From contig CAUTZD010000003.1 of the NCBI GenBank assembly GCA_963542825.1, positions 6,804 through 70,803 on the forward strand: 64,000 nucleotides of DNA, written 5' to 3'. Made by a program: the position numbers and the translations under genes. Positions 21,859-47,604 of the stretch are shown here, piece after piece. The notes beneath the pieces were generated by a model. It was not told the origin of the DNA. It ran no database searches and saw only the letters and a list, made by a program, of their open reading frames with translations. Source of the DNA: an uncultured Acholeplasmataceae bacterium. GTDB taxonomy: Bacteria; Bacillota_I; Bacilli_A; ML615J-28; CAG-698. Positions within the stretch are counted from its first letter, which is position 1, and every line of letters begins with the position of its first letter.

Positions 21859-24507
21859 TTATTTATTTAACGCTTTTTCGCGTTTTAATTTAATTTGTGC
21901 TTGAGCACCAGCTAAACGAGCAATTGGTACTCTGAATGGTGAACAAGAAACATAATCAAGTCCTACTTTATTAAAGAACTCAATACTATTAGGTTCACCA
22001 CCATGTTCACCACAAACACCTAAGTGAATGTTCTTGCGTGCTTTCTTGCCAAGTTCAACTGCCATGCTTATAAGTTTACCAACACCATTTTGGTCAACAG
22101 TTCTAAATGGATCAAACTCAAAAATTTTCTTTTCGTAGTAGCTTGATAGAAAACTTGCAGCATCATCGCGGCTAAAGCCGAAAGTCATCTGTGTTAAGTC
22201 ATTAGTACCAAAACTAAAGAATTCTGCTTCCTTAGCAATTTCATCAGCAAGCAGTGCTGCCCGTGGAATTTCAATCATTGTTCCTACGTGGTATGTAAGT
22301 TCAACCCCAGCTTCTTTAATAATTTCATCAGCCGTTTTAACAACAACATCCTTAACGTATTTAAGTTCCTTAACTTCACCAACAAGTGGAATCATAATTT
22401 CAGGAGCACTAAAGTTTACTTTTGGATTACGTTTGCGCACGTTGATAACTGCTTCAATTACCGCTCTTGTTTGCATCGCTGCAAGTTCAGGATAAGTGAC
22501 GGCTAACCGGCAACCACGATGACCCATCATTGGGTTAACTTCGTGAAGTGATGAAATTTGATCTTTAACTGTAATAACACTAACACCAGTTTCGTTAGCA
22601 AGCTCGTTGATTTCTTTTTCCTCTTTTGGCAAGAACTCATGTAGTGGTGGGTCAAGATACCGAACAGTAACAGGTAATCCTTCCATCGCTTCATATAAGT
22701 CTTCGAAATCTTTTCTTTGAAGTGGTAAAAGTTTCGCTAAAGCTTTTTCACGTTGCTCTGTTGATGTTGCAACGATCATTTCTCGCATTGCCTTAATTCG
22801 GTTAGAATCAAAGAACATATGTTCTGTCCGGCATAAGCCAATTCCTTTGGCTCCAAAGGCAAAAGCTTGTTTAGCATCTTTAACAGTGTCAGCGTTAGTC
22901 CGAACTTCAAGACGACGATATTCATCGCACCAGCCCATGAACTTAGCAAAATCGCCGGTAATCTCCACAGGGTTTGTTGGAATCTTTTCAAGATATACAG
23001 CTCCAGTTGATCCATCAAGAGAAATGAAATCACCTTCTTTGATTGTGTGCTCACCAATTTTAGCAACACCACCGCCAAAAGTTAAAGTTTGGCAACCTGA
23101 TACACAGCACTTACCCATACCACGCGCTACAACGGCTGCATGGCTTGTCATACCACCGCGTGCTGTTAAAAAGCCTTCAGAAATATGCATTCCTTCGATA
23201 TCTTCAGGAGAAGTCTCAAGCCGTACTAAAACAGCAGGCTCACCACTTTTTACAAATTCTTGAGTCTTTTCGACACTGAAAGCCACACGACCACAAGCAG
23301 CACCAGGGCTTGCTGGAAGTCCTTCAGCTACCATTTTCGCTTTCTTTAGAGCGGCTTGGTCAAACTGTGGATGTAATAAACTGTCAAGTTGAGCAGGTTC
23401 AACATGCAAAACAGCATCTTCTTTACTAATCATCTTTTCATTAACTAAATCAACCGCAATTCGCAAAGCGGCTTGAGCAGTACGTTTACCATTACGTGTT
23501 TGTAAGAAATATAATTTTTCATTTTCAATCGTAAATTCAATGTCTTGCATATCACGGAAATGATTTTCAAGTTTCTTACTTAACTCTAAAAACTGTTGAT
23601 AAACACTAGGCATAATCTCTTTTAATTGATCAATCTTTGAAGGTGTCCGCACGCCGGCTACAACGTCTTCACCTTGAGCGTTCATTAAGAACTCACCATA
23701 AAGCTTGTTCTCACCAGTTGCAGGGTTACGGGTAAAAGCAACACCAGTTCCTGATGTATTTCCCATGTTACCATAAACCATTGACTGAACGTTAACTGCA
23801 GTTCCCCAAGAACCAGGAATACCGTTTATCTTCCGGTAGTACTGGGCCCGAGGGTTTTCCCAAGAACGGAACACCGCGCTTACTGCTCCATATAATTGAA
23901 CTTTTGGATCGGTTGGGAAATCTTCTTTCTTCTCAGCCTTATAAAACTTCTTAAATTTCTTGATCATCTCAAGTAAATCTTCAGCAGTAAATTCGATATC
24001 TTGTTTAATATTACGAGCTTTCTTCATCTCATCGATAATCTCTTCGAACCGATGTTTTGGAAGTTCCATAACAACATCAGAATACATTTGAATGAAACGA
24101 CGATAAGAATCATACGCAAATCGTGGATTATCTGTAATCTTCGCTAATCCTTCGACAACCTCTTCATTCAATCCAAGATTAAGGATTGTGTCCATCATTC
24201 CGGGCATCGAAACACGTGCACCTGAACGAACAGAAATAAGAAGCGGGTTAGCGGGATTACCAAATTTCTTTCCAGTAATCTTTTCAAGTTCCACAACTGC
24301 TTTCTCAATTTGGGCAACAATTTCCTCAGAAATCTTTTCCCCAGCGTTATAGTATTCAGTACAAGCCTCTGTTGATACAGTAAATCCTTGAGGGATTGGT
24401 AGTCCAAGCTTAGTCATCTGACCAAGGTTAGCACCTTTACCACCAACGAGGTTGCGCATTGTTGCGTCTGTCTCTGAAAACATATAAACATATTTTTTCT
24501 TCGCCAT
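21859..24507 (-). CDS. ppdK: Pyruvate, phosphate dikinase
   Basis: 882 aa with a PEP-utilising-enzyme N-terminus (GGKGANLGQM), a phospho-histidine domain (GGMTSHAAVVARG) and a C-terminal TIM-barrel domain. An extended -10 (TGGTATAAT) lies upstream at 24539-24547. Confidence 0.95.
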   Translation of the reverse strand: MAKKKYVYMFSETDATMRNLVGGKGANLGQMTKLGLPIPQGFTVSTEACTEYYNAGEKISEEIVAQIEKAVVELEKITGKKFGNPANPLLISVRSGARVSMPGMMDTILNLGLNEEVVEGLAKITDNPRFAYDSYRRFIQMYSDVVMELPKHRFEEIIDEMKKARNIKQDIEFTAEDLLEMIKKFKKFYKAEKKEDFPTDPKVQLYGAVSAVFRSWENPRAQYYRKINGIPGSWGTAVNVQSMVYGNMGNTSGTGVAFTRNPATGENKLYGEFLMNAQGEDVVAGVRTPSKIDQLKEIMPSVYQQFLELSKKLENHFRDMQDIEFTIENEKLYFLQTRNGKRTAQAALRIAVDLVNEKMISKEDAVLHVEPAQLDSLLHPQFDQAALKKAKMVAEGLPASPGAACGRVAFSVEKTQEFVKSGEPAVLVRLETSPEDIEGMHISEGFLTARGGMTSHAAVVARGMGKCCVSGCQTLTFGGGVAKIGEHTIKEGDFISLDGSTGAVYLEKIPTNPVEITGDFAKFMGWCDEYRRLEVRTNADTVKDAKQAFAFGAKGIGLCRTEHMFFDSNRIKAMREMIVATSTEQREKALAKLLPLQRKDFEDLYEAMEGLPVTVRYLDPPLHEFLPKEEKEINELANETGVSVITVKDQISSLHEVNPMMGHRGCRLAVTYPELAAMQTRAVIEAVINVRKRNPKVNFSAPEIMIPLVGEVKELKYVKDVVVKTADEIIKEAGVELTYHVGTMIEIPRAALLADEIAKEAEFFSFGTNDLTQMTFGFSRDDAASFLSSYYEKKIFEFDPFRTVDQNGVGKLISMAVELGKKARKNIHLGVCGEHGGEPNSIEFFNKVGLDYVSCSPFRVPIARLAGAQAQIKLKREKALNK

Positions 24508-24649
24508 ATTTTTTTGACCTCCTAAAAATATTCATCCCATTATACCACCAACTGATAATTTAAGCCATTTTTTTATTTATACTTGAAGAGTTTTTCTTTT
24601 AGCAGTCATAATAAAAAATATGGCTCTTTAAAAACCATATTTTTGTTGA

Positions 24650-28135: not shown

Positions 28136-29485
28136 TCACTTTCCTAGGCAAAAGCGCTTGAACATCTCACTTACTACTGTCTCTTCTGTTTGATATCCAA
28201 GTATCATATCAAGCTCAAGAAGCGCCCCTTTTAAATCGATAAGAAGAAGATCAAGGGGCACATGATTTTCTGTTCCCTCTAAAGTGTCTTCTAAGAATTT
28301 ACTAGCTCTTTCAAGGCACGTTACCTGCCTTGTTGTTCCAAGATACGTTTCATCACTTGTATCGATATCATTTAAGTTAAACAATTCAATAATCTTTTTC
28401 TTAATATTTAAAATATCTTTTTGTTTGAACGTTGATATATACAAATGCTCGCCAACCGCTTTACGATCAATTTTTAAAGGCAGGTCGCTTTTGTTAACGA
28501 TAACAATTCGCTTCTTATTGTGAGTTTCTTTAAGAAGAGAAAGATCACTTTCTGTTAAAGCTATGGAACTGTCAAAAACCAAAAACAAAAGATCCGCTTC
28601 TTCGATAACTTTTTGAGCTTTCGTTACCCCTATTTTTTCAGCCTCAGATTCTCCTGTTCTTAGTCCTGCCGTATCAATAAAATGTAAAGGCAGGCCTTCT
28701 ACCGCAATCTCAGCTTCAACAAGGTCACGTGTCGTTCCAGCTTCGCTTGTAACGATCGCTTTTTGATATCCTAACAGTGCATTAAGTAAGCTACTCTTAC
28801 CAGCGTTTGGTTTACCAACGATTCCCGCGTTTATCCCTTTTTGATAAAGCTGCTTATCTTTAGAATATAAAATGATATTTTTAAACTTTTTTAAAAGCTC
28901 GGTAACTTCTGTTTTAATAAGGCCATTTGTTACCTTTTCTTCATCTTCATATTCTGGATAATCGATGTTGACTTCAGCTTTTAAAATAACTTCTAAAAGC
29001 CTTTCTCGCAATTTATCGATTTCGTTTTTCGTTTCTTTAAAAAGCCCTTTACGACTAAGCTTCAAACTTTTTTGTGATTCCGAAGTAATCGTATCCATAA
29101 TCGCCTCGGCTTCCGTTAAATCGATGCGCCCATTTATAAATGCCCTTTTTGTGAACTCCCCAGGCTCAGCTAATCGCGCTCCGTGTTTTAAGCACTCACT
29201 TAAGACCTCTTTTGTAATAAGGTTACCGCCATGCGTATTAATTTCAACAACGTCCTCACACGTATAACTTTTCGGTTTTCTAAAAACACTAACGAGCACT
29301 TCATCAATATTCTCGCCCTTATCATTAACGATATATCCATACGAAATAGTGTGACTTGGTCTTTTGGTTAAATCAGGTCCTTTGAAAATTTTATTAACTA
29401 TTTCGATACTATCATCACCTGATAGTTTGACAATTGCAATTCCGTGATTAGATAAAGCAGTTGCAATCGCTGCGATCGTATCCAT
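28136..29485 (-). CDS. mnmE: tRNA modification GTPase MnmE
   Basis: G-domain GKPNAGKSSLLNALL, DTAGLR and NKSD motifs. C-terminal CLGK. Confidence 0.95.
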   Translation of the reverse strand: MDTIAAIATALSNHGIAIVKLSGDDSIEIVNKIFKGPDLTKRPSHTISYGYIVNDKGENIDEVLVSVFRKPKSYTCEDVVEINTHGGNLITKEVLSECLKHGARLAEPGEFTKRAFINGRIDLTEAEAIMDTITSESQKSLKLSRKGLFKETKNEIDKLRERLLEVILKAEVNIDYPEYEDEEKVTNGLIKTEVTELLKKFKNIILYSKDKQLYQKGINAGIVGKPNAGKSSLLNALLGYQKAIVTSEAGTTRDLVEAEIAVEGLPLHFIDTAGLRTGESEAEKIGVTKAQKVIEEADLLFLVFDSSIALTESDLSLLKETHNKKRIVIVNKSDLPLKIDRKAVGEHLYISTFKQKDILNIKKKIIELFNLNDIDTSDETYLGTTRQVTCLERASKFLEDTLEGTENHVPLDLLLIDLKGALLELDMILGYQTEETVVSEMFKRFCLGK

Positions 29486-34678: not shown

Positions 34679-35362
34679 ATGGATAAATTAGAAACCCTAA
34701 AAAAAGCTAAAGCTGAGGTTATTCAATCATTCGCGCCAACTAACGAATTTTTAGCAAAATTTATTACTAGTCAATTTGGGTTTGAGGAAGATGGATTAGA
34801 TGAAATTGAAGTTTTGAAAGTTCTCGAAGATAAGAAATCAAAACTTACTGTCCAAATGCAAAAAGGTATTTTAAACGAAAAGGAAGCCTTTTTGAAAATT
34901 TTCGATATGGCTAAACAAGGTGAAGACATGGATGAAAAACATTTAAAAGATATTCACGCAATCTTGCTAAAAGATTTAAATCCTCTTGGAGGACTATATC
35001 GCCAGGTAAATATTAGTGTTAAAGGCAGTTCGTACATCCCGCCTCATTTTTTAAAAGTGTATGATAAAATGAATAAATACTTTGTTGAAACTTTAAATCC
35101 GTTTGGCAATTTATATGAAAACATCAGTTATGCTCACCTGCAGCTAACAAAGGTTCGCCCATTTATTGATGCCAATGGCCGCCTTGCAAGAATTGTACTT
35201 AACTATCATCTCATTAAAAACGGTTTTCTACCAATTATTATTAACCATAAAAAACCTCAAGAATACTTTGCTTTACTTGAAGAGTTCAAAGTCCAAAAAA
35301 ACATTAAACCGTTTGTTGAATATTTAATAAAAGAAGAAGCTCTCGTTTTGGAAGCTTTATAA
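34679..35362 (+). CDS. Fic/Doc-family protein with a degenerate active-site motif (RPFIDANGRLAR)
   Basis: Fic fold signature ...AYAHLQLTKVRPFIDANGRLARIVLNYHL. The canonical HPFx[DE]GNGRxxR has His replaced by Arg and the first Gly replaced by Ala. Confidence 0.75.
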   Translation: MDKLETLKKAKAEVIQSFAPTNEFLAKFITSQFGFEEDGLDEIEVLKVLEDKKSKLTVQMQKGILNEKEAFLKIFDMAKQGEDMDEKHLKDIHAILLKDLNPLGGLYRQVNISVKGSSYIPPHFLKVYDKMNKYFVETLNPFGNLYENISYAHLQLTKVRPFIDANGRLARIVLNYHLIKNGFLPIIINHKKPQEYFALLEEFKVQKNIKPFVEYLIKEEALVLEAL

Positions 35363-35367
35363 TATGT

Positions 35368-35397
35368 AAAAGACACAGGATCATGCCTGTGTCTTTT
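35368..35397. terminator. Bidirectional terminator between fic and the convergent membrane-protein gene
   Basis: AAAGACACAGG-atcatg-CCTGTGTCTTTT. Confidence 0.6.
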
Positions 35398-36391
35398 CTA
35401 TTGCTTCTTCAGTCATTATAATTTCTTTCCTAAGTTCTTCTTTATCTTTCTTTTTCTTGAGGAAATACAAAACAAAATTCGTGATAAACAAAAGACTCAC
35501 AAGAACTGTAAAAACCCATATAGTAATGAAACGACCAAGTCCGTAAATTCTTACTCCGGCGATCAGAAGCACTGCTGGATAATGAATCACAGAAAAACCA
35601 AAGTAAATGATTTCTAAAATGATTCCAATAAATCCTTCCTTTTGCTTCTTTGGATCGACAATTGAACTAGCTTGTAAAGCTAAACCAACCATTAATAAGA
35701 TATCAAGCGCTACAATAAATGAATGATAAAAATGTCTGATTTTTGTTGGTTTGTCTTTAAACGTTTCCGAACCCGGAAACACTTTTTTAAAAAATTCTTC
35801 TAAAGTTAATATTTCATGTAATGCTTGTACATGTAGAAAAAGCACAGCAGCAAGAACAACAAAAATAATAAAATGCGCTTTTTTAAGTTTACTATTAAGT
35901 AAATCCTTATATCTAATAACCTTTTCTTTTTCATCTTCTTTAACTTTGACATGTGTTAAGAAAATATGTAGTACTATATTAAAAGCGATGATTAAAAAGA
36001 ATAATATATAAATAAACGACCACCCAGAGACACCTAAAATAGCAAAGAATTCAACAGCATCAGGAAATACAATATTAATCACAATAAAATCAATAAATAA
36101 CAAGATATTAAAACTATATGAGATTATTGAAAATATAAATCTTCTTTTGTTAGGATTTAAATGCACAAGTGTTAATTGAACACCATATCCAAAGAAAACC
36201 AGAAAAGCTGGCAATATTATAGTCAAAAAAGGCGTTAGGCCAATATCATCAAAGATATATTCTAGAAATTCGAAGTAGTAGTCCACGATAGTAAAGTAAA
36301 AGATTATCGGTAAATAAAAAAGAAGGCAGATGATTCCCGTTAAAAATAGTATCGTAGATAAGATTTTTTTTGTGTTTTTCGTGATATTCAT
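35381..36391 (-). CDS. Polytopic membrane protein, member of a three-copy paralog family in this window
   Basis: Shares GYGVQ.TL..L.PNK.RFIFSI.SY, IFLTH.K.. and a C-terminal FI.RKQNK with the ORFs at 61750-62757 and 62741-63691. Confidence 0.55.
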   Translation of the reverse strand: MNITKNTKKILSTILFLTGIICLLFYLPIIFYFTIVDYYFEFLEYIFDDIGLTPFLTIILPAFLVFFGYGVQLTLVHLNPNKRRFIFSIISYSFNILLFIDFIVINIVFPDAVEFFAILGVSGWSFIYILFFLIIAFNIVLHIFLTHVKVKEDEKEKVIRYKDLLNSKLKKAHFIIFVVLAAVLFLHVQALHEILTLEEFFKKVFPGSETFKDKPTKIRHFYHSFIVALDILLMVGLALQASSIVDPKKQKEGFIGIILEIIYFGFSVIHYPAVLLIAGVRIYGLGRFITIWVFTVLVSLLFITNFVLYFLKKKKDKEELRKEIIMTEEAIEKTQA

Positions 36392-37380
36392 TCGGTAATC
36401 TCTTTACTGATACTTTTAACATTATTAATGAAAACATTGTTCTTATTAATCCATTCTACAAAAACTTTTTTTCTAAGTACAAAAGGAATTTCTGGTGTTG
36501 GTGAATTATTGGCAAAATCTTTCCCACAAAATTTACAATATCTTTTAAAACCGTTATTGACTGTAAAATGCTGCTTTTTGCCGATTTCCTCTCCGCAATA
36601 ACAAATATTTACGTGATATTGCTCGTCATATACTCTATAATAACAATAGTGGCAGTCATCTAAACAACTGTGACTTCCTATGAAAATTTTTTTAAATAAT
36701 TCACACTCAATCATTTCCAATGGTATCATCATAAACATAAAATAATGAATCGGGAAAACTTGGCAATATGCAAACTTAACCAAAGTCACACAGTTAAACG
36801 TTTCAAGATTGTATGTGGTTCCTAGTTTACTCTTCAAATAATTAACGATTATACTTCTTTTGCTATTATCAATGTTTTTAGGTTTGTATATCTCACCTTT
36901 CCGTTCACTGAAACGATATTCATCTAACATCCCATAGCAAACGTTATATCCCTTAGCGTTTTCAATTAATTCTATATAATATTTATTATATCGATAATCG
37001 AATTTAATTCCTGTAATTATTGCCACATGCCCTTGTCCTGCTGCTGCATTTTTTTCATAATAAAGATCTCCTATTTCGACAAGATCAAGAAGATTTTTAT
37101 TGCCAAAAATAGGTGTCGTTTTGAGACCATCATCGATTTTATAATAATTTTTCATCCATTCAGGTGCTTCAGATGAAGACATCGCCTCAAATTCATTTTC
37201 CGTTTCGTGAATTGAATCGAAATTTTCTGTAATTTCGCTTTCAGCAACACAATCCTCGCACGCTTTTATTCTAGCTGAATTAAAGAACGCAAAGAAAGAA
37301 AAAAGAAAAACCAAAGCAATAGCAAAGAAGGCTTTCATTATTTTGTTTAAGCTTCTTTTGTTTAATTTCATAGAAATCAA
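36388..37380 (-). CDS. Secreted or membrane-anchored Cys-rich protein, possibly a permuted papain-like (LRAT/YaeF-type NlpC/P60) domain
   Basis: N-terminal signal/TM. A His block (GQGHVAIITG) precedes a Cys block (ETFNCVTLVKFAY), resembling the NCEHF-type permuted NlpC/P60 order. The C-terminal region has at least 10 Cys (CHYCYY...CYCGEE...CKFCGK). Confidence 0.4.
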   Translation of the reverse strand: MISMKLNKRSLNKIMKAFFAIALVFLFSFFAFFNSARIKACEDCVAESEITENFDSIHETENEFEAMSSSEAPEWMKNYYKIDDGLKTTPIFGNKNLLDLVEIGDLYYEKNAAAGQGHVAIITGIKFDYRYNKYYIELIENAKGYNVCYGMLDEYRFSERKGEIYKPKNIDNSKRSIIVNYLKSKLGTTYNLETFNCVTLVKFAYCQVFPIHYFMFMMIPLEMIECELFKKIFIGSHSCLDDCHYCYYRVYDEQYHVNICYCGEEIGKKQHFTVNNGFKRYCKFCGKDFANNSPTPEIPFVLRKKVFVEWINKNNVFINNVKSISKEITE

Positions 37381-39632: not shown

Positions 39633-40682
39633 TTAAGCTAAAGTGTTTGGTAACGATTTAATATCGTAACTAAAACGCAAAATCTTTTGTTCTTCGCCTT
39701 CTGCATTATATACGAGGCGACAATAAATCTTACTATATTTACGAGATTTTAAAACCACGTAGTTATCAGTCTTAACTAAGAAATTTTCACGAGCTTCTTT
39801 TTGTAAAGTGTTAGGACGAAGACCATAAACACCATAAAACGGATCCATTGTCCCGTCTTCACGTTCAAGCCATAACTGATAAGAAATGTGCCGGTTTTTT
39901 TCAATATATTTTTCATTATCAGACAATCTTAAACCAAAATTATAATTATCACGTTCTTCAGCTGTTAAGTGCTTTTCTTTACTTTCTTCAGCTGTCAAGT
40001 GTTTACGGCTAATAAAGAAAGTAAAAATCTTCTCGCCATTTGCTTCTAGGAAATTGTTATTATTATAATCTTCCTTTTTTTCTTTTAAATCGCTGAAATA
40101 AAAGAAATGTTTTTCCGCAAATTGATACTTAACTTCAGTTGGTTCTTTAAACTTCTCTTCGCCTTTATATAAATAGCTAATATAGAAATCCCTAACTTTG
40201 TTAACCCCGAATTTATAAATTTTACCATCTTTCTTCATCGCAATATTGCGGGAAGCATCGGAAGTGTACTTAGAACTTAAACTTCGTTCATAATATGTAA
40301 TGAGTGGAACGATACCAAAATTATCAACTTCAGCATTAATATTTAAATATTTAATGTAGCTACTTTTCCATTCAGACGGTTCGTCTTTTTTTGTCCCTAA
40401 ACGCATATACATAAGATGAGCGATAACATTAACTTCATCGGTTTGGCTGTCACGAGCCAAATCGCCTTTCATATGAAGTTCAATTGAAACGTTTCCTCTA
40501 TTATACAGTTCTGTATTCCAATTAATGTAAATGAGCTTACTTCGCTTTTTGAGTTCGATTCTTGTAATCAAAAAACTAATCAAAGCAACGAGGAAAACAA
40601 AACAAATTCCTCCTAAAATAATCCATAAATAGTTTATCTTTTTAAAATCACGATAGTTTTTCACTTCGGCTTTTTGTGTCAT
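39633..40682 (-). CDS. N-terminally anchored hypothetical protein (349 aa) sitting between rpmH and dnaA
   Basis: A single N-terminal TM (LWIILGGICFVFLVALISFLI) and a largely hydrophilic remainder. Contains a 27-bp tandem duplication (KHLTAEE x2). Confidence 0.5.
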   Translation of the reverse strand: MTQKAEVKNYRDFKKINYLWIILGGICFVFLVALISFLITRIELKKRSKLIYINWNTELYNRGNVSIELHMKGDLARDSQTDEVNVIAHLMYMRLGTKKDEPSEWKSSYIKYLNINAEVDNFGIVPLITYYERSLSSKYTSDASRNIAMKKDGKIYKFGVNKVRDFYISYLYKGEEKFKEPTEVKYQFAEKHFFYFSDLKEKKEDYNNNNFLEANGEKIFTFFISRKHLTAEESKEKHLTAEERDNYNFGLRLSDNEKYIEKNRHISYQLWLEREDGTMDPFYGVYGLRPNTLQKEARENFLVKTDNYVVLKSRKYSKIYCRLVYNAEGEEQKILRFSYDIKSLPNTLA

Positions 40683-40890
40683 ATTTCACCTACCTAATTT
40701 ATAACTTAGGTTTTATTATACTTTAGATTAAGCAAAAATGGGAAGTTTTTTACTTATCAACATGAGGATAAAAAACAAGGTTATGGAATACTTTTTCACC
40801 ATTTTATAATCATTTTATGAATGTGGAAAAGTGGAAAAGTTTTTGATGCAAAGATCTTTCTTTTATGGTATATTAAAACGAGACAAAATA
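40683..40890. other. Probable oriC segment / dnaA control region
   Basis: Gene-strand polarity switches here. DnaA-box-like 9-mers: TTATCAACA around 40757 and tandem TGTGGAAAA/GTGGAAAAG at 40822-40839. A further TTTTCCACA lies just after dnaA at about 42311. Confidence 0.5.
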
Positions 40891-42300
40891 ATGGAATTAA
40901 GTTACTACCAAACCCTTTTTAATCAGATAAAAACCGAGCTTATTAAGGAAAAAGAAAAAGTCGATAAGAACGGTCAAAATATCGAAAGCATGTTTAATAA
41001 TGTTTATGGTATATATAAATATGAAAACGGCGTCGTGTTTGTTGAAGTTACCGATCAAGTAGCTCAATTTCGTTTCGATCGTTTCTTTAAAAATTCCATT
41101 AACGACATCGCTGAAAAGTTAACTGGCGAAAAAATTATCTTTAAATTTATCACTTCCGACGAAGTTATTAAAGAAAAATCTGAAGACATGACGTTTTTAA
41201 CTCCTGAAAAAAGCGATAAAATACGGGGTGAACGGCGTCTTCGTGCTGAGTTCACGTTTGAGATGTTTGTTGTTGGTGAAGCTAACCGGTTTGCTTATAT
41301 TAATGCTTTGCAAGTTGCCCAAAATCCTAATTCAACATTAAATCCTCTATATATATTTGGAAACGTTGGTCTTGGAAAAACCCACCTCATGATGGCAATT
41401 GGTAATTATATCCTCGAAAACAACATGCAAACAAACATCATTTATACAACAGCTCAACAGTTTGCGGAGAATTTCTTTTTTTATACTAACGACCGCGAAG
41501 GTAAACAAAAGATTGAGTCTTTCTATAATTATTATAATAGTGCCGATATTTTACTTGTTGATGATATCCAGTATCTTGAAGGAAAAAATAAAACCCAAGA
41601 CGAATTTTTTAAGATTTTCGACCGTTTATACGAAAATAGTAAGCAAATAATTGTAACAAGTGATCGAAAAGCGAACGATTTAAAACTTATGGATCGCTTA
41701 AAAAGTCGGTTTAGCTGGGGTTTAGAAGTTAATATTAATTATCCAGATCAAAATTTACGTGAAAAGATTGTTTATAGTAAACTTTCGACCTTAATTCAGA
41801 ACCCAAAAGACGTCCCTGAAGAAGTAGTAGTTAAAATCGCAAGTCTTTTTACTTCTAATATCCGTGAGCTTGAAGGAGCAACGAGACGCTTTATCACTTA
41901 TTGTGTAGGCCTTGATTTGCCGTTTACTATCGAAAACGCTGAAATCGCTTTAAAAGATATTTTAGCGACAAATAATAATGAGAAAGAAAATTATTATCTA
42001 AGTGAAACTAACGATTTAAAAAAGGTAATTAGTGAATATTTTAAACTCCCAATTAGCGATCTTGAGTCTTCGACACGCAAAAGCGCTGTTGTTTATGCTC
42101 GCAATATCTGTTTCTACTTAATTAGAGAGTATTTTAAGGTTCCTTTAAAGGAAATTGGATCGTTTTTTGGTAACCGCGACCATGCTACAGTTGCACATGG
42201 CATCGAAAAAATAGCATCAGAGATGAAAACAAATCATAATATTAAAAATGATATATCTTATTTGACGAAAAAGGCAAATATTTCTCGGAAAAATGGTTAG
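40891..42300 (+). CDS. dnaA: Chromosomal replication initiator DnaA
   Basis: AAA+ motifs (GNVGLGKTHL, LLVDDIQ) and a C-terminal DNA-binding domain. The start was moved to the internal ATG at 40891 (MELSYYQTLFNQIK). Confidence 0.95.
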   Translation: MELSYYQTLFNQIKTELIKEKEKVDKNGQNIESMFNNVYGIYKYENGVVFVEVTDQVAQFRFDRFFKNSINDIAEKLTGEKIIFKFITSDEVIKEKSEDMTFLTPEKSDKIRGERRLRAEFTFEMFVVGEANRFAYINALQVAQNPNSTLNPLYIFGNVGLGKTHLMMAIGNYILENNMQTNIIYTTAQQFAENFFFYTNDREGKQKIESFYNYYNSADILLVDDIQYLEGKNKTQDEFFKIFDRLYENSKQIIVTSDRKANDLKLMDRLKSRFSWGLEVNINYPDQNLREKIVYSKLSTLIQNPKDVPEEVVVKIASLFTSNIRELEGATRRFITYCVGLDLPFTIENAEIALKDILATNNNEKENYYLSETNDLKKVISEYFKLPISDLESSTRKSAVVYARNICFYLIREYFKVPLKEIGSFFGNRDHATVAHGIEKIASEMKTNHNIKNDISYLTKKANISRKNG

Positions 42301-42374
42301 TTATTAACTTTTCCACACTCATAATAATAAAAGTAATTTTATTATTCAAATTAATAAACAAAAAGGCTTTAAAA

Positions 42375-43502
42375 ATGAAATTTAAAATTAAAACTTCTTA
42401 TCTTTTAAATAATTTAATACCTGTATCTAAAGCTGTATCAAGGAACATTCAAATGCCGGTGCTCACTGGCATTAAGTTTGATGTAAAAAAAGATACAGTC
42501 GTCCTTTCAGCGACCAATAACAGCGAGCTTTCGATTCAGGCAAAACTTCAAGCAAACGAGGATTTAATAATCGAAGAAACAGGAACAACGGTAATATCAG
42601 CTAATGTGTTATTAAACCTTATTAAGAAAATCGAAGAGAAATGGTTAAATTTTAGTTTATTTGAAGAAAAAACACTCAAAATTTACAACGAAAAAGGTAA
42701 TTATAGTATTAATCAGTTTGATCCTGAGTATTTTCCTAATATTTCTTTTATAGCTTCTGATAAAAAACTCAGTTTATCAACAGTCGTTTTTAAAGATATT
42801 ATCAAAAAAGCAACAATTGCTGCTAGTGAAAGACTCGGTGATGGTGTTTTGACTGGTGTTAATTTAACTATTGATAATAAAAAAGTAATCTTTTCAGCAA
42901 CAGATAGTTACCGATTATCGCGAAAAATTATCGACCAAACTGATGAATTTGAAGATGTTAGTGTCGTAATACCTGCAAAATCCTTAGAAGAAGTAGGAAG
43001 GATCTTAGAAGATGAGAAAGGAAAGGTTGAATTATTCTTCAAACCTTCAAACGTTATCATTAAATATAAGAATATTCACATAAAACTAACAGTTATTGAA
43101 GGTAAATATCCTAAAACTGATGTTTTTATTCCTAAAAAATACACAAACGGTTTTGTTGTTAGACGATCAGACTTATTAGCAACGATTGAGCGAATGAATA
43201 TTTTTATTGAATCTGATAGTTCTAAGATGATAAAAATCCAGTTAAATAACCAAAAAGTTCTTGAATTTAACTCTTCAACAACAGAAACCGGAGGGGCACA
43301 AGAAAAGCTTGAACCGATAGAAGTTGATAATGACACGCCATTTATTGTTGCTTTCAGTGCTAAATACTTTCATGAAGCGATAAAAATCTTCGATGGTGAA
43401 CTAATTAGCCTCAAATACACAGGCGAAGTTAAGCCTTTTGTCTTCACATCTGAAGGTGATGAGAATTTTATTCATTTGGTTTTACCAATGCGGCGTCCAT
43501 AA
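42375..43502 (+). CDS. dnaN: DNA polymerase III beta subunit (sliding clamp)
   Basis: 375 aa with three-domain clamp architecture. Sits immediately after dnaA. Confidence 0.9.
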   Translation: MKFKIKTSYLLNNLIPVSKAVSRNIQMPVLTGIKFDVKKDTVVLSATNNSELSIQAKLQANEDLIIEETGTTVISANVLLNLIKKIEEKWLNFSLFEEKTLKIYNEKGNYSINQFDPEYFPNISFIASDKKLSLSTVVFKDIIKKATIAASERLGDGVLTGVNLTIDNKKVIFSATDSYRLSRKIIDQTDEFEDVSVVIPAKSLEEVGRILEDEKGKVELFFKPSNVIIKYKNIHIKLTVIEGKYPKTDVFIPKKYTNGFVVRRSDLLATIERMNIFIESDSSKMIKIQLNNQKVLEFNSSTTETGGAQEKLEPIEVDNDTPFIVAFSAKYFHEAIKIFDGELISLKYTGEVKPFVFTSEGDENFIHLVLPMRRP

Positions 43503-43507
43503 TTAAA

Positions 43508-43533
43508 AAAAGAAGGATTTTTCCTTCTTTTTT
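43508..43533. terminator. Bidirectional terminator between dnaN and the convergent ParA-like gene
   Basis: AAAGAAGGA-ttttt-CCTTCTTTTTTT. Confidence 0.65.
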
Positions 43534-43535
43534 TA

Positions 43536-44345
43536 TTACTTAACAACATTTTTATTTGGTTTAAATTTAAAACGACTGTAAATATCTTCTAAATCTTTCT
43601 TTAATTCTTCAAACATGCTTTTATCATAAGGTTTTAAAGGGAGATTATCATCATAAACACTCCATCCTTCTGATTGAATGTTTTTAATTATCGATTTATC
43701 ACGTAAAGCTGGTAATAAAACTGCTTTTTTCGTGAAATCTTTAACTTGCTGTTCCAAATGTTCTAAGGAAACTTGTGGAGCTCGTTTGTTTTTAGCGTAT
43801 CCATTAGGAACAACATACTTTACTTTGTCTAAATCGAGGTCTTTATCCACAAAATACTGGATAGTGTTAAAGAATCCATCAATTCCTAGACTATCAAGAC
43901 CAACAACAACAATGATTTCATCACTTATTTCTAATAAAACTTCAGTTAAACGGCAGCCAGAAGGTGGAAAATCAATAAAAACATAATCAAAACCATTAGC
44001 ATATTCCTTAACCGCTTCAATAACTTTCTTTTCGTAAGGTCTATTTAATGTTATTTGCATAGAAATCTGATCTGTATTGAGAGTTTTAATTAAATATAGG
44101 TCTTCACGAGCTTCAATTAGGATGTCTCCTTCATATTTATCACCAGTTAATAGGTGTTCAAAGAAATTATCGACGTTTTCGTCGATCTTTTTTTCAACTC
44201 CAAAGACTTTAAAGACACTATTTTGGTCATCTGAACTTAAAATTAGTACAGTATTTCCTTTTTTAGCGAAATAATGAGCTAAATAACTAAGAATTGTGGT
44301 CTTTCCGACCCCGCCTTTTCGGCAATAAGCAGATATAATTGGCAT
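43536..44345 (-). CDS. ParA/MinD-family (Soj-like, short type-Ib-like) P-loop ATPase
   Basis: Deviant Walker A CRKGGVGKTT, A-prime ILSSDDQ, Walker B YVFIDFPPS. 269 aa with no N-terminal HTH. Confidence 0.8.
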   Translation of the reverse strand: MPIISAYCRKGGVGKTTILSYLAHYFAKKGNTVLILSSDDQNSVFKVFGVEKKIDENVDNFFEHLLTGDKYEGDILIEAREDLYLIKTLNTDQISMQITLNRPYEKKVIEAVKEYANGFDYVFIDFPPSGCRLTEVLLEISDEIIVVVGLDSLGIDGFFNTIQYFVDKDLDLDKVKYVVPNGYAKNKRAPQVSLEHLEQQVKDFTKKAVLLPALRDKSIIKNIQSEGWSVYDDNLPLKPYDKSMFEELKKDLEDIYSRFKFKPNKNVVK

Positions 44346-44347
44346 AA

Positions 44348-44674
44348 TTAGCGTCCTTCTCTATCTAATTTCTCACGACAAGCTTCTTCTATGTAGTCAG
44401 AAATCTGTAAACCATAGGTTGCAGCAGCAATTTTGAGCCTTCTTCGTAGGTTTACGTTCATAGTTGCGGTGTATTTTTCCCGAATTTCTCCACTATCCTT
44501 TATAGGTTTTGTAGCTTTAACGGGTTTTGGTTCAGGATTTTCGACCTTTTGTGTGAAAAAAGGCGGGTCTTGCTCGATTTTTTCGGGTGTAACAGCCGTT
44601 TTTTCGATCGTTTTTTGGATTTCATTCTCCATTGGGTTTGATCTTTTCTTAAATGGTAGGGGTTTATTAGCCAT
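44348..44674 (-). CDS. Small ribbon-helix-helix (ParG/CopG-like) DNA-binding protein with a disordered K/P-rich N-terminus
   Basis: C-terminal 40 aa YTATMNVNLRRRLKIAAATYGLQISDYIEEACREKL matches the beta-strand/helix/helix RHH pattern. Stop is 2 nt before the ParA ATG. RBS AGGAGG. Confidence 0.55.
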   Translation of the reverse strand: MANKPLPFKKRSNPMENEIQKTIEKTAVTPEKIEQDPPFFTQKVENPEPKPVKATKPIKDSGEIREKYTATMNVNLRRRLKIAAATYGLQISDYIEEACREKLDREGR

Positions 44675-44734
44675 TTTTTTGCCTCCTTTTTTAGGTTAAT
44701 AAAATTTTGATCATTTTTCTTTAAAATGCGTATA

Positions 44735-44826
44735 TATACATAAAACCATATTTACGTATATGTTCTTATACATAAATAAATATATAAATATATACATATT
44801 TACATTTATACATAAAACCATATTTA
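44735..44826. repeat. Two exact 20-bp direct repeats TATACATAAAACCATATTTA (44735-44754 and 44807-44826) immediately upstream of the RHH gene
   Basis: Read directly from the sequence. Related inverted TATGTATA / AAATAAAACCACTTTTATTTA copies occur at 45090-45165. Confidence 0.7.
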
Positions 44827-45169
44827 TTTTTTGATTCTAAAGCGCCTATTTTTTCAAAAAACAAAGTAAATTTTTGCAATTTTTGTGTTTTGATCAACAG
44901 ATTTTGGGTATTTCATCGGAAAATATCTTCTGATTTTAAAAATTAGCCCGAAAATCGCTTTTTAAATCGCTTTTTTCGCCAGTGTAAGAAAATTACTCAG
45001 GTTTGAGGCTAAAAATTATCACAGAGCCCGAAAGAAAGTTTGAATTTTTTGCAAACAGCTGTTAAAAGAAGATTTTTTGTTTTATTTACATAAATATGTA
45101 TTTATGTATTTATTGTTTTATGTATATAAATAAAACCACTTTTATTTATTTACACATAGCCATAATACC

Positions 45170-46270
45170 ATAAAAAAATACCCTGTCAACAGTTAATTTT
45201 TGGTGGTTATTTTAAGATCATAAACAAGAGGTTAAAAAAGTACCTAAAAAATGGATAAAAAAGCCCGTTTTTAAGCATTATTAAGCAAAAACAAGCAAGA
45301 ATCGGCTTATTTAATAAGAATTTTCTCAAAAATTAACAGTTCTTAAAAATACTCTTCCTTATATATATACAAAAAAGGCACAAAAAAGTTAAAATGCCGC
45401 TTTTTTGTGTTTTTTAGCTCTAAAACAACCAAAAAATATGAAAAAACATAGCTTTTTACCCGTTTTAAGGCTGTGTTTGCCCCTTTTTACTGGTTAAAAT
45501 CAATTTAAAATATAAAAAATGCTGTTTTTTATTAAAAAATCTCTCTTTTTTAGCAGAAAACCATCGAAAAAACAGGCGAAAAGTAGTTAAAATACGATTT
45601 TTATCACTAAAAACACAAAAATTGCAGAAAAAATACGACAAAATCATCATATTTTTGCCTAAAAACGATCTTTTTTATGTTAAAAAAAGGAAAAATAATA
45701 AGAAATGCCTAAAAAGCAGGTATAAAACACAAAAAAAGATGCGAAAATTTAGCAAAAACAAGCGTTTTTTTGTTAAAAAATGGCCAAAAGAGCAAGAAAG
45801 CAGCTGTTTTTAGATCTAAATAACAAAAAACGCCCAAATTTACGCAAAAATCCAGTAAAAAAGTAGCTGGATTAACTTGAAAAAGTTTAAGAAAACCAAA
45901 ATCATTAACCAGTAACTAATTTTTTAAGTGTTTTTGACTAAAAAATCCAAGAAAAGTACATAAAATCATCAAAAAACACTGGATAAAGTATAAGCAATTG
46001 GATTTTAAGAAGAAAATGCTGTTTTAAACACCAAAAAAGCTTAAAAAAGAGGATAAAAAGTGTAAAAATGTTAATAAGTTGTGGAAAACTAGCTACTTTT
46101 TAGTATGTTTTAATAATATTAAAAAATACGCCCCAAAAAATCCAAAAAATTGCTGATTTTTGAGAGAATTTATGGTAAAAAACAGCCACAGAAAACCATT
46201 TTTTATTAAAAATGAGGAAAACTTTCAAAAACTAACGTTTTAAGGCTTAAAATCACATATTTTTATGGAA
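45170..46270. repeat. 1.1-kb gene-free array of helically phased A-tracts (degenerate 21-bp period), strongly A-rich on the plus strand
   Basis: A4-A7 runs recur every 10-11 bp, for example starting at 45557, 45567, 45579, 45589, 45608, 45617, 45628, 45640, 45661, 45682, 45691. There are recurrent words AAAAAATACG(A/C)C, GAAAATGCTGTTTT and GAAAACCA. One DnaA-box-like TGTGGAAAA lies at 46081-46089. Only low-complexity K-rich ORFs are present. Confidence 0.6.
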
Positions 46271-46325
46271 AAAAGTGAAGATTTATAGTAATATGATATA
46301 TATAAGGAAGAAAAGGACCAGAGGA

Positions 46326-46535
46326 ATGAAAGAAATAAAAATAACTACTGAATACATTACTTTAGGTCAATTTCTAAAGTTTTCTGGTGTCATTTTAAAT
46401 GGTGGCGAAGCGAAAAATTTTATTGCCAATAGCACAATAAAAGTCAACGACCAAATCGTAAAAGAACGCGGGAAAAAGCTGAGAAATGGTGATTTGATAG
46501 AAATCCATAAGGAAAAATATGTCATCAGAAACTAA
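46326..46535 (+). CDS. yaaA: S4-domain RNA-binding protein YaaA
   Basis: MKEIKITTEYITLGQFLKFSGVILNGGEAKNFI... (69 aa). In the B. subtilis-like dnaN-yaaA-recF position. The start was moved to the internal ATG with an AGAGGA RBS. Confidence 0.7.
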   Translation: MKEIKITTEYITLGQFLKFSGVILNGGEAKNFIANSTIKVNDQIVKERGKKLRNGDLIEIHKEKYVIRN

Positions 46536-46536
46536 G

Positions 46537-47604
46537 ATGTATCTAAAATCTGCGAAAATTGTTAATTTTCGTAATTATTTTGATAAAACATTCGATTTTT
46601 CACCTAAAATGAACATAATTGTTGGCGAGAACGCCGTTGGGAAATCGAATTTAGCTGATGCAATCAGCGTTTTAGCTTCTGCCAAGAGCTTTAGATCAAT
46701 AAAAGACCCGTTTTTATTAAAGAAAGAAATGCCTTTTTATCGTTTAGAAGGCCATTTTTTAAGAAATGGATTAGAATCTAAAAGAATTGTTATGTTTGAT
46801 GGCGAAAAAAGGATTCAAAAAGTTAATGATAACTTGTTAAAAACTAGTGAATATCTTGGAGAAATAATTCCCGTTGCTTTTACCGCTGATGATTTGTTAA
46901 TAATTAAGGGAAGTCCAAGTGAAAGAAGGCGGTTTTTAGATTTAATTTTGTGTCAAATTGACAAGGAATACCTGAAAAACCTCGTTCACTACCAAAAAAC
47001 TCTTAAAGAGCGCAATATTTTTCTGAAAAACCCCGGAAAATCACCATATAATCGTTCTTTTCTTGTGAGTTTGACAAAATACTTGCTTACAACCGCAAAG
47101 CCTATAATCGAGAAAAGAAAGGTCTTCATTAGTGAGTTAAACGAGGAAATTAAGCCGTTTTTACAGGATTTAGCTATCGATCAAGACATTTTTCTTGAAT
47201 ACTTACCAAATATCGTAGGAGAAAACCTAGAAAATTATCTAGAAACGTTGATTCAGGCAGACATTTTAGCGAAAAAAACGACCTTTGGTATTACAAGAGA
47301 CGAGCTTAAAATTGCGGACGCTAAAGGTCTTGTTATGAATGTTGCTAGTCAAGGGCAAATTCGGGCAGTTGCTTTGGGATTAAAACTGGCAGCTGCGAAG
47401 ATTTTAGAGAAGAAAAACTATGAAATTATTATCATTTTAGATGATGTTTTGAGTGAACTTGATAAGGTTCGCCAGGACAATGTTCTGAAACTTATTCCAA
47501 AAAACGTGCAAACATTTATTACAACAACATCTACTAATGAAATAAATGATGAAATACTTAAAAATAGCCATCTAATATATATCGAAAGAGAGGAAAACAA
47601 ATGA
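46537..47604 (+). CDS. recF: DNA replication and repair protein RecF
   Basis: [14 protein letters not shown]..., Walker [11 protein letters not shown]-terminal signature region. Start at the ATG 1 nt after the yaaA stop. Confidence 0.9.

Follow-up and report, generated by a model that had tools for sequence, protein, structure and literature searches.

A candidate type Ib partition system of a ParA ATPase, a ribbon-helix-helix protein and octamer repeats beside the replication origin in a clade of Acholeplasma-like Bacilli

The gene pair and the gap between dnaN and yaaA

We analysed a 64-kb stretch of DNA from an uncultured Acholeplasmataceae bacterium (contig CAUTZD010000003.1), hereafter the window, together with origin loci of about 5-21 kb each from its relatives. 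The subject is an interruption of the gene order at the replication origin, which consists of two genes, for a ribbon-helix-helix (RHH) protein and a ParA-family ATPase, and a long intergenic gap. As the original prediction from the bare sequence had proposed, the plus-strand genes dnaA (40831-42300), dnaN (42375-43502, confirmed by Pfam DnaN), yaaA (46323-46535, Pfam YaaA) and recF (46519-47604, Pfam RecF N-terminal domain), followed by gyrB, gyrA and serS, stand in a Bacillus-like order that is broken between dnaN and yaaA. The identity of yaaA is further supported by the NCBIfam model TIGR02988 (YaaA_near_RecF), which its product matches at 87 bits (cutoff 84.75). The minus strand between dnaN and yaaA carries parA (43536-44345, 269 aa, N-terminus MPIISAYCRKGGVGKTT) and the RHH gene (44348-44674, 108 aa). 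The stop codon of the RHH gene and the ATG of parA are 2 nt apart, which indicates a translationally coupled pair with the RHH gene first; the open reading frames (ORFs), this spacing and the Pfam matches bear out the predicted opposite-strand cassette, and the A-then-B order implied by its likening to ParF/ParG is not the order found.

The gap between the RHH gene and yaaA (44675-46322) is 1648 nt long, or 1600 nt if yaaA begins at the alternative GTG start at 46275. It has a GC content of 25%, against 34% in the surrounding 18 kb, and contains no ORF longer than 63 aa, no tRNA and no Rfam match at E<0.28. The description of this stretch as gene-free therefore holds, with the refinement that it carries features of another kind, the octamer blocks described below.

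A scan for ParA in one genome per GTDB species yielded 30 loci from the same clade (L001-L030) and one unrelated locus from Emticicia (L031). The record titles of the 30 are Acholeplasmataceae, 'Bacilli bacterium', Mollicutes or Tenericutes bacterium and Coprobacillus CAG:698, with some Bacillales and Bacteroidales. Their ParA proteins are 53-60% identical to that of the window, and their GC content ranges from 26 to 51%. When the window proteins were used as tblastn queries, dnaA, dnaN and then the opposite-strand parA-RHH pair were found in this order in 30/30 loci, and a gap followed by yaaA-recF-gyrB-gyrA in all 24 loci that extend far enough. Hence, the synteny check proposed with the original prediction gave a clear answer, the junction of dnaN and yaaA being interrupted by the same cassette and gap in 24/24 informative loci. 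The gaps of the relatives are 827-3238 nt long, lie 5-18 GC points below their own locus and have no conserved ORF; in genomes of 45-51% GC they are still at 28-33% GC. A decayed gene or mobile remnant was rejected as an explanation of the gap, the ORFs not being conserved between gaps and the DNA matching no phage or plasmid.

The original prediction had also raised the possibility that a plasmid par locus was captured beside oriC. In favour of a recent capture from a plasmid or phage are the type Ib design, which is typical of plasmids, and the opposite-strand cassette, which breaks the Bacillus-like gene order. Against it, the same cassette occupies the same place in 30 species at 53-60% ParA identity, and its GC content matches that of the host. 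Among 72,556 plasmids, the best ParA was 26% identical and the RHH protein had no match; among 2.9 million viral contigs, ParA matches over more than 140 residues reached 23-33% identity, so that neither collection holds a close relative, and the gap DNA matched nothing in the phage and plasmid collections. Because of the fixed place in 30 species and the distance of all mobile relatives, we treat a recent capture as excluded, its probability being close to nil. An ancient capture in the ancestor of the clade is possible and would leave the present role unchanged. Carriage by a mobile replicon, which is part of the definition of type Ib systems, thus gives way here to a chromosomal place that is fixed in 30 species.

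We then looked for the usual partners of a chromosomal ParA. Among 47 ORFs of at least 110 aa in the window that were scanned for domains, there was no ParBc domain, no second ParA, no RsmG and no MnmG, in agreement with the predicted lack of ParB and of an mnmG-rsmG-soj-spo0J block in the window. The gene mnmE is present (28136-29485) and is followed by neither mnmG nor rsmG. A tblastn search with Spo0J, whose sequence served as a probe only, had no match with E<0.4 in the 30 loci or the window itself, and gave 7e-59 in the Emticicia control. Allowing up to three mismatches to the 16-bp palindrome parS (TGTTNCACGTGAAACA), there were 3 matches in the window against 2.5 expected, and no exact match occurred in any relative's locus fetched. 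In other bacteria, parS sites flank oriC. With no ParB and no parS detected in the window and in the origin loci of the 30 relatives, the stretches searched lack the features that define a chromosomal ParABS system.

DnaA boxes are situated upstream of dnaA at 40754, 40763 and 40822, and another (TTTTCCACA, 42309-42317, plus strand) lies in the dnaA-dnaN spacer (42301-42374), where it forms the series TTTTCCACA-ctc-a-TAA-TAA-TAA-AAG-TAA, followed by an AT-rich run. We take this spacer to resemble the arrangement of box, trios and AT-rich unwinding region in the oriC of B. subtilis. If the unwinding region of oriC is placed there, about 2.4 kb would separate it from the repeat arrays beside the RHH gene. 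The same distribution, with boxes clustered upstream of dnaA and in the dnaA-dnaN spacer and not in the gap, was observed in 25/25 loci with both flanks, and most relatives have one box in a spacer of about 80-100 nt.

The ParA ATPase and its ribbon-helix-helix partner

The ParA protein matches Pfam AAA_31 (8.4e-23, from residue 2) and CbiA (1.5e-11), and has a deviant Walker A motif (K10-GGVGK15-TT) that is invariant in 28 homologues; the alignment of these 28 sequences has 83 invariant columns. At 269 aa and without an N-terminal DNA-binding or helix-turn-helix (HTH) domain, it has the form of a type Ib ParA. There were 388 homologues, of which the best 120 are 55-99% identical, and the named ones among those listed are called 'ParA family protein' and come from metagenome-assembled genomes (MAGs) of Bacilli or Acholeplasmataceae. 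When the ParA profile was compared with solved structures, all matches were remote: HpSoj at 1e-9, the ParA of pNOB8 at 4e-9, the delta protein of pSM19035 at 1.5e-8, with the longest aligned stretch (residues 9-249), and MinD at 3e-7. Since the solved ParA-class proteins are only remotely related to it, this ParA forms a separate deep branch of the family. It scored 53.8 bits with the NCBIfam model NF041546 (ParA_partition), well below the cutoff of 180 for membership in that curated family.

The RHH protein begins with a short basic peptide (PFKKRSNP, residues 7-14), continues with a variable low-complexity linker (residues 15-64 approximately) and ends in the RHH domain (residues 65-108), in which the β-strand KYTATM is followed by two helices. 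This layout is common to the family. The N-terminal pattern is M-N-x(2-4)-P-F-K-K-R-x-N-P, and in an alignment of 58 sequences F8 and R11 are invariant, with P7, K9, K10 and P14 nearly so. The linker is rich in Q, P and T and measures about 13-50 residues, that of the window being the longest seen. The C-terminal 45 residues follow the pattern (R/K)xKYTA(T/V)MxxxLRxRxKIAAxxxxxxxSxFIEEAxxEKLEREG, with an invariant β-strand KYTA[T/V]M, which is the part that would read the DNA; the core of the repeat unit described below is invariant as well. The family comprises 473 sequence clusters, and apart from two odd names the sources listed call its members 'hypothetical protein'.

Taken alone, the protein of the window scored 20.8 bits with 56B_RHH, below the cutoff of 27.2, and was sub-threshold with other RHH models as well. 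The family as a whole gave firmer results: Pfam 56B_RHH was found in 16 of 21 members (best 4.7e-8) and RHH_3 in 9 of 21, and the family profile matched PDB entry 2kel, the 56B RHH protein of a Sulfolobus virus (SSV), at E=6.9e-9. An AlphaFold2 (AF2) model of the monomer places helices at residues 74-87 and 93-106 after an extended segment and gives the linker low confidence. These profile and model results assign the small protein to the ribbon-helix-helix fold, as is expected of the partner in a type Ib system. It is not, however, a member of the ParG or Omega families: in a check with hidden Markov model profiles, ParG (PF09274) matched 3 of 21 family members at E≥0.068 and Omega_Repress (PF07764) matched 5 of 21 at E≥0.0062, all weak and below threshold, and the window protein scored 13.7 bits with the latter against a cutoff of 33.3.

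In summary, the predicted type Ib architecture is borne out by a small ParA without an N-terminal DNA-binding domain and an RHH protein encoded beside it. The pair is of type Ib by design, and departs from the known type Ib systems in its location outside plasmids and in the lack of sequence membership in the ParG, Omega and ParF families.

Octamer arrays and a conserved element in the gap

All gaps are filled by one family of repeats with an 8-bp unit, whose core TATGTA/TACATA occurs in mixed orientation and in strict register. The distance from one TATG to another was 8, 16, 24, 32 or 40 nt in 185, 105, 65, 60 and 53 cases, respectively, against 3-4 expected from shuffles that preserve composition. 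Inverted pairs peak at 6/14/22 and at 10/18/26 nt, which amounts to the same 8-bp register once the 6-bp length of the core is considered. From 571 in-register units at 25 loci, the consensus is (A/T)(T/A)(T/A)-TATGTA-(T/A), with TATGGT, TATGTT and TACGTA as minor variants. There are 4-19 clusters of at least two in-register units per gap, compared to 0-4 in flanks of 7-19.5 kb. The arrays reach the ribosome-binding site of the RHH gene in all species and abut this gene in 25/25 loci with both flanks.

In the window, the arrays are represented by two blocks on the minus strand. The proximal block (44737-44822) is 86 bp long and has 11 slots in one register, six of which hold canonical units (TATGTA or TATGGT); its end lies 62 nt before the start codon of the RHH gene, and it includes the repeat families D1 and D6 and has a period of 8 in Tandem Repeats Finder (TRF). 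The distal block (45087-45172) is of the same length and likewise has 11 slots in one register and six canonical units, here in mixed orientation (TATGGT, TATGGC, three TACATA and TATGTA), also with a TRF period of 8, and it pairs with the proximal block through the inverted repeats I1-I5. BLAST of the window gap against the gaps of 24 other species gave matches in these two blocks only. Outside the proximal block, clusters of at least three in-register units occur in the window only in the distal block (four units) and at 24479 (three units). The latter, three TATGTA-like units (AACATATAAACATATTTTTTCTTCGCCATA) at 24479-24508, lie at the start of the gene for pyruvate phosphate dikinase and are probably a chance match.

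To judge from its repeats and position, the proximal block is a candidate for both centromere and operator. An iterated short-repeat centromere beside the operon promoter is a mark of type Ib systems, and the blocks offer a sequence counterpart in the form of predicted binding sites. The original prediction had named 44.7-46.3 kb as the DNA on which to look for binding of the RHH protein; the candidate sites are confined to 44737-45172, and the remainder of the gap has none. The best promoter match of the region (45162-45189, minus strand) is sigma-70-like, with TTGACA, a spacer of 16 nt and TG-TATTAT (11 of 12 positions), and its -10 hexamer is contained in the first two distal-block units. 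It could be an autoregulated promoter that reads through the island described below and the proximal block into RHH-parA. As the promoter-like totals in the region are not above those of shuffles, we regard this match as a lead only.

Arrays that abut the operon and overlap promoter-like sequence would also suit a regulator. According to this alternative, the RHH protein would be an autorepressor acting on the arrays, ParA would act on DnaA in the manner of Soj or position some other cargo, and the place beside the origin would reflect control of dnaA-dnaN or of oriC. The genes do lie beside dnaA-dnaN, 2.4 kb from the unwinding region, and ParA-family ATPases have many roles outside segregation, the closest solved relative here being a chromosomal Soj. 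However, a single operator suffices for autoregulation, whereas every species has 4-19 clusters over 1-3 kb, and a basic N-terminal peptide on a flexible linker would, by analogy, be typical of adaptors that activate ParA and not of plain repressors. We therefore consider a purely regulatory pair unlikely, although regulatory and segregation roles are not mutually exclusive.

The arrays are not continuous. In nearly all loci, an island of about 260-420 nt without clusters separates the RHH-proximal block from the next block; in the window, it extends from 44823 to 45086. Inside the island lies an element of about 100 nt, which is found as one copy per locus in 29/30 relatives, always on the strand of the RHH gene and 250-450 nt upstream of it, with nhmmer E-values from 5.5e-26 to 2e-9. 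The copy in the window (44946-45024, minus strand) is the most diverged (E=0.005) and has the expected place and strand. The element is laid out as AAAATTTCG, about 6 nt, TTGTTTT, a GC run of about 10 nt, CTAATAAnTTTACC, about 10 nt and AAAATCGATTnnAnnCGnAAATTTT, and AAAATCGATT and CGnAAATTT are also among its parts. The polarity of the GC run flips between species.

Other readings of the element were tried and rejected. A small ORF is contradicted by the reading frames, each of which is open in at most 5 of 29 copies, and by conservation that lacks a 3-nt period; as an inverted-repeat pair it is unconvincing, since the best arms average 6.4 nt and are mostly AAATTT. RNAalifold found no consensus pair in 29 aligned copies, and Rfam gave the element no match, either in the window or in the two relatives scanned. 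We take it to be a cis element that acts at the level of DNA. These results also bear on the idea of one or more non-coding RNA genes in the gap, in favour of which one may cite a long intergenic region at a conserved position and a strong promoter-like site (45189-45162) with the element downstream. The Rfam scans of the window and two relatives yielded chance-level matches only, and with the tRNA scan and RNAalifold negative too, an RNA gene was rejected as a candidate for the gap; we hold the presence of non-coding RNAs to be highly improbable.

Alternatively, the gap as a whole could belong to the replication origin, in which case the repeats would be iterons or architectural sites for an initiator or origin-binding factor and the element a site of unwinding or loading. 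[quoted passage not shown] The second dip of the skew is, however, explained by the two minus-strand genes. The gaps contain 0-4 relaxed DnaA boxes each (0-1.2 per kb), which is at the level of noise and not what an oriC would have; no DnaA box adjoins the element, and the dnaA-dnaN spacer already possesses a box, trio-like repeats and an AT-rich run. With no enrichment of boxes in 25 gaps and with boxes and an unwinding-like region around dnaA, the gap was rejected as oriC, and a role as part of the origin seems very unlikely.

Beyond the distal block, the window has an A-rich, lineage-specific spacer of 1.1 kb (45190-46322) without octamer clusters or an ORF longer than 63 aa. It is dissimilar to every other gap and matches nothing in the phage and plasmid collections. 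A/T tracts of 5 nt or longer number 58 in it and recur with a phase of about 11.5 bp; the periodicity power is 1.53, against a 95th percentile of 0.65 in shuffles, and the spacer may on this basis be intrinsically curved DNA. Other species have more clusters in the same space, or cluster-free stretches of their own of 0.5-0.85 kb. Between closer relatives, the conserved parts of the gap are the RHH-proximal 500-750 nt and the yaaA-proximal 120-440 nt, with a middle that is not alignable. The yaaA-proximal end is 71-84% conserved among L006, L008, L009, L013, L028, L016, L018, L019, L021, L023 and L024 and may be a promoter or leader of yaaA; no counterpart was detected in the window, whose sole near-identical or 84%-identical relatives have contigs that end at the gap.

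Another reading is that the RHH protein merely represses its own operon and that most of the gap is functionless, fast-evolving, AT-rich simple sequence, in which the repeats beyond the promoter-proximal block would have arisen by slippage. In its favour, the mid-gap is not alignable even between fairly close relatives, gap length varies fourfold, and 1.1 kb of the window gap has lost its clusters or never had them. On the other hand, a gap of 0.8-3.2 kb has been kept in 24/24 relatives with both flanks, in tightly packed genomes; the core of the unit and its 8-bp register are maintained over 26-51% GC; and the clusters are interspersed with unique sequence, contrary to a single expanding microsatellite. 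We thus see this as a decidedly unlikely account of the gap.

Some observations on the arrays concern individual relatives. In the gaps of two 'Coprobacillus' MAGs, L017 (positions 1277-1989 approximately) and L020 (approximately 1126-2106), clusters recur mostly every 95-112 nt, with many intervals of 101-106 nt; a spacing of about ten helical turns, kept over some 0.7-1 kb, would place successive clusters on one face of the helix. The gap of L017 contains a run of N. The metagenome contigs L032-L034, from the same or a close species (ParA 99% and 84% identical), stop 48 and 332 nt upstream of the RHH gene or inside it. It seems that the repeat field breaks short-read assemblies at the origin.

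An origin-linked partition system as the proposed role

We propose that the RHH-parA operon and the arrays form a chromosomal, origin-linked type Ib partition system that is vertically inherited in this clade of Acholeplasma-like Bacilli, a reading we hold with moderate confidence. That 30 related species keep the module at the same spot implies that it is probably a centromere system of the chromosome. The original prediction had offered chromosome segregation with an RHH centromere binder as one of two possibilities, and it is the one favoured by the 30-species synteny, by the arrays that abut the operon and by the lack of ParB and parS near the origin. As in chromosomal ParABS systems, the candidate centromere is origin-proximal, the arrays being 2.4 kb from the DnaA box.

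Dimers of RHH proteins bind DNA at one short repeat each, and do so cooperatively where repeats are contiguous. In the proposed mechanism, each 8-bp unit would be bound by one RHH dimer, and the dimers would sit next to one another along contiguous slots. The coating of the two 11-slot blocks of the window, or of up to 19 clusters over 3 kb in relatives, would build a large nucleoprotein complex about 2.4 kb from oriC. From this complex, the PFKKRxNP peptides on their flexible linkers would contact ATP-bound ParA dimers spread over the nucleoid and cause ATP hydrolysis, and the RHH-coated sister origin regions would be pulled apart along the resulting ParA gradient by a diffusion ratchet, as in pSM19035 delta/omega, TP228 ParF/ParG and SegAB. 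Since the blocks abut or overlap promoter-like sequence, binding to them may also autoregulate the RHH-parA operon. The sequences show the gene pair and its fold assignments, the repeats with their register, the synteny across the clade and the lack of ParB and parS near the origin; repeat binding by the RHH protein, stimulation of the ATPase, autoregulation and the role in segregation are what we infer by analogy with these systems.

A further-reaching version, which we put forward tentatively and rate at somewhat less than an even chance, is that ParB-parS has been replaced altogether in the clade by an RHH system with a multi-kb centromere of 8-bp repeats, of which the element of about 100 nt would be an additional cis part. 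The element might then, for example, be bound by a second protein through which segregation is linked to replication or to the folding of the chromosome.

Several points weigh against the proposed partition system. The sequence of the ParA is no guide to its cargo, since it is as far from Soj as from plasmid ParAs and MinD-like proteins. The RHH-parA operon meets replication from oriC head-on, an unusual orientation for a core gene. The AF2 monomer of the RHH protein is weak (predicted local distance difference test, pLDDT, 63), and the best match of a fold search with it was NikR at E=5. The association of the RHH protein with the repeats is by position and co-conservation only. A comparison of KYTATM and KYTAVM variants with the variants of the unit gave no clear difference, and a change in the β-strand was in no case accompanied by one in the repeat core. 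The window itself offers just two repeat blocks, along with 1.1 kb of gap DNA that bears no relation to the arrays. Finally, the absence of ParB and parS applies to 64 kb of the window and 5-21 kb per relative, and they could lie elsewhere in the genomes.

Among the closest known systems is the delta/omega pair of pSM19035, a plasmid of Firmicutes. In its parS sites, 7-bp repeats of mixed orientation follow one another without interruption, 7-10 per site, and overlap promoters. Each repeat takes up one omega dimer, and activation of the delta ATPase via the N-terminus of omega requires four or more contiguous repeats (PMC9499535). Both systems combine a small ParA with an RHH protein whose N-terminal tail is flexible in omega and predicted to be so here, and both have contiguous short repeats in mixed direct and inverted orientation (8 bp here and 7 bp there). 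Unlike pSM19035, the module studied here is chromosomal and fixed at oriC throughout the clade, and is a single coupled operon with the RHH gene first; its unit is TATGTAnn instead of WATCACW, its arrays are dispersed over up to 3 kb together with a conserved non-repeat element, and its RHH protein has no significant membership in the Omega family.

ParF/ParG of TP228 likewise pairs a ParA with an RHH protein whose N-terminal tail is unstructured in ParG and predicted to be flexible here. The ParG tail carries an ATPase-stimulating residue, and parH is made of 4-bp boxes and 4-bp AT-rich spacers, with a period of 8 bp. In contrast to the present case, TP228 is a plasmid of Enterobacteria with the order A then B and a parH of about 100 bp, not kilobases; the ParF-ParG interaction has been covered elsewhere (PMC7308502).

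The archaeal SegAB system of Sulfolobus has been proposed to segregate the chromosome without ParB (PMC8682754; PMC12139799), and SegB binds 7-bp repeats beside segAB (PMC12139799). It shares with the module of the window a chromosomal ParA-type ATPase, an RHH DNA-binding protein and short tandem repeats beside the operon. It differs in being archaeal and in that segS lies 166 kb from oriC2, whereas the arrays here are about 2.4 kb from oriC. Against the ParA profile, SegA (7dut) matched over the P-loop residues 3-36 only (E=8.9e-5), and SegB was absent from the PDB matches of the RHH profile up to E=10. On these profile comparisons, the resemblance is architectural only. With Soj/Spo0J/parS, finally, the module has in common a ParA-family ATPase and origin-proximal, centromere-like DNA, and the best solved relatives of its ParA include Soj proteins; it differs in its RHH partner and in the place of its genes, between dnaN and yaaA and not in an rsmG-soj-spo0J block.

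Reviews describe every bacterial chromosomal centromere-binding protein as an HTH ParB (PMC5002424), and mollicute-type bacteria have been described as being without par genes or ParABS (PMC7022226; PMC13142093). Full-text searches of a literature library turned up no account of a ParA-RHH system at the oriC of a bacterial chromosome, and one may still be described elsewhere. If true, the proposal would make this clade an exception to the rule of an HTH ParB, would mean that the type Ib design can serve a bacterial chromosome and would provide a bacterial parallel to archaeal SegAB. In Firmicutes, ParB loads SMC and regulates DnaA via Soj, and this raises the question of how SMC loading and DnaA control proceed without ParB. 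For the annotation and closure of these genomes, the 'hypothetical protein' labels of the RHH genes and the assembly breaks at the origin also matter.

A few features of the neighbourhood complete the description of the locus. Between the convergent dnaN and parA, at 43506-43533, lies a hairpin (AAGAAGGA-TTTT-TCCTTCTT), bordered by runs of A and T, which belongs to the direct-repeat family D11 and is likely a bidirectional intrinsic terminator to judge from its sequence; this call is our own inference, as a scan for consensus terminators did not list the hairpin. On the other side of the origin, the minus strand ahead of dnaA carries jag, yidC, rnpA and rpmH, together with a gene for a 349-aa protein. 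The 349-aa protein (39633-40682, minus strand, between rpmH and dnaA) has a basic N-terminus, one predicted transmembrane helix and no Pfam match. In almost all of L001-L030, an ORF of 300-400 aa with an FPxKxN-like motif followed by a hydrophobic helix takes the equivalent place, and in L005 a 676-aa ORF stands there instead; the 349-aa ORF is a fast-evolving positional orthologue across the clade, located at the origin. Adjoining jag on the minus strand are two ORFs of about 330 aa without a Pfam match (35381-36391 and 36388-37380), and a plus-strand Fic-domain gene (34679-35362) stands amid minus-strand genes.

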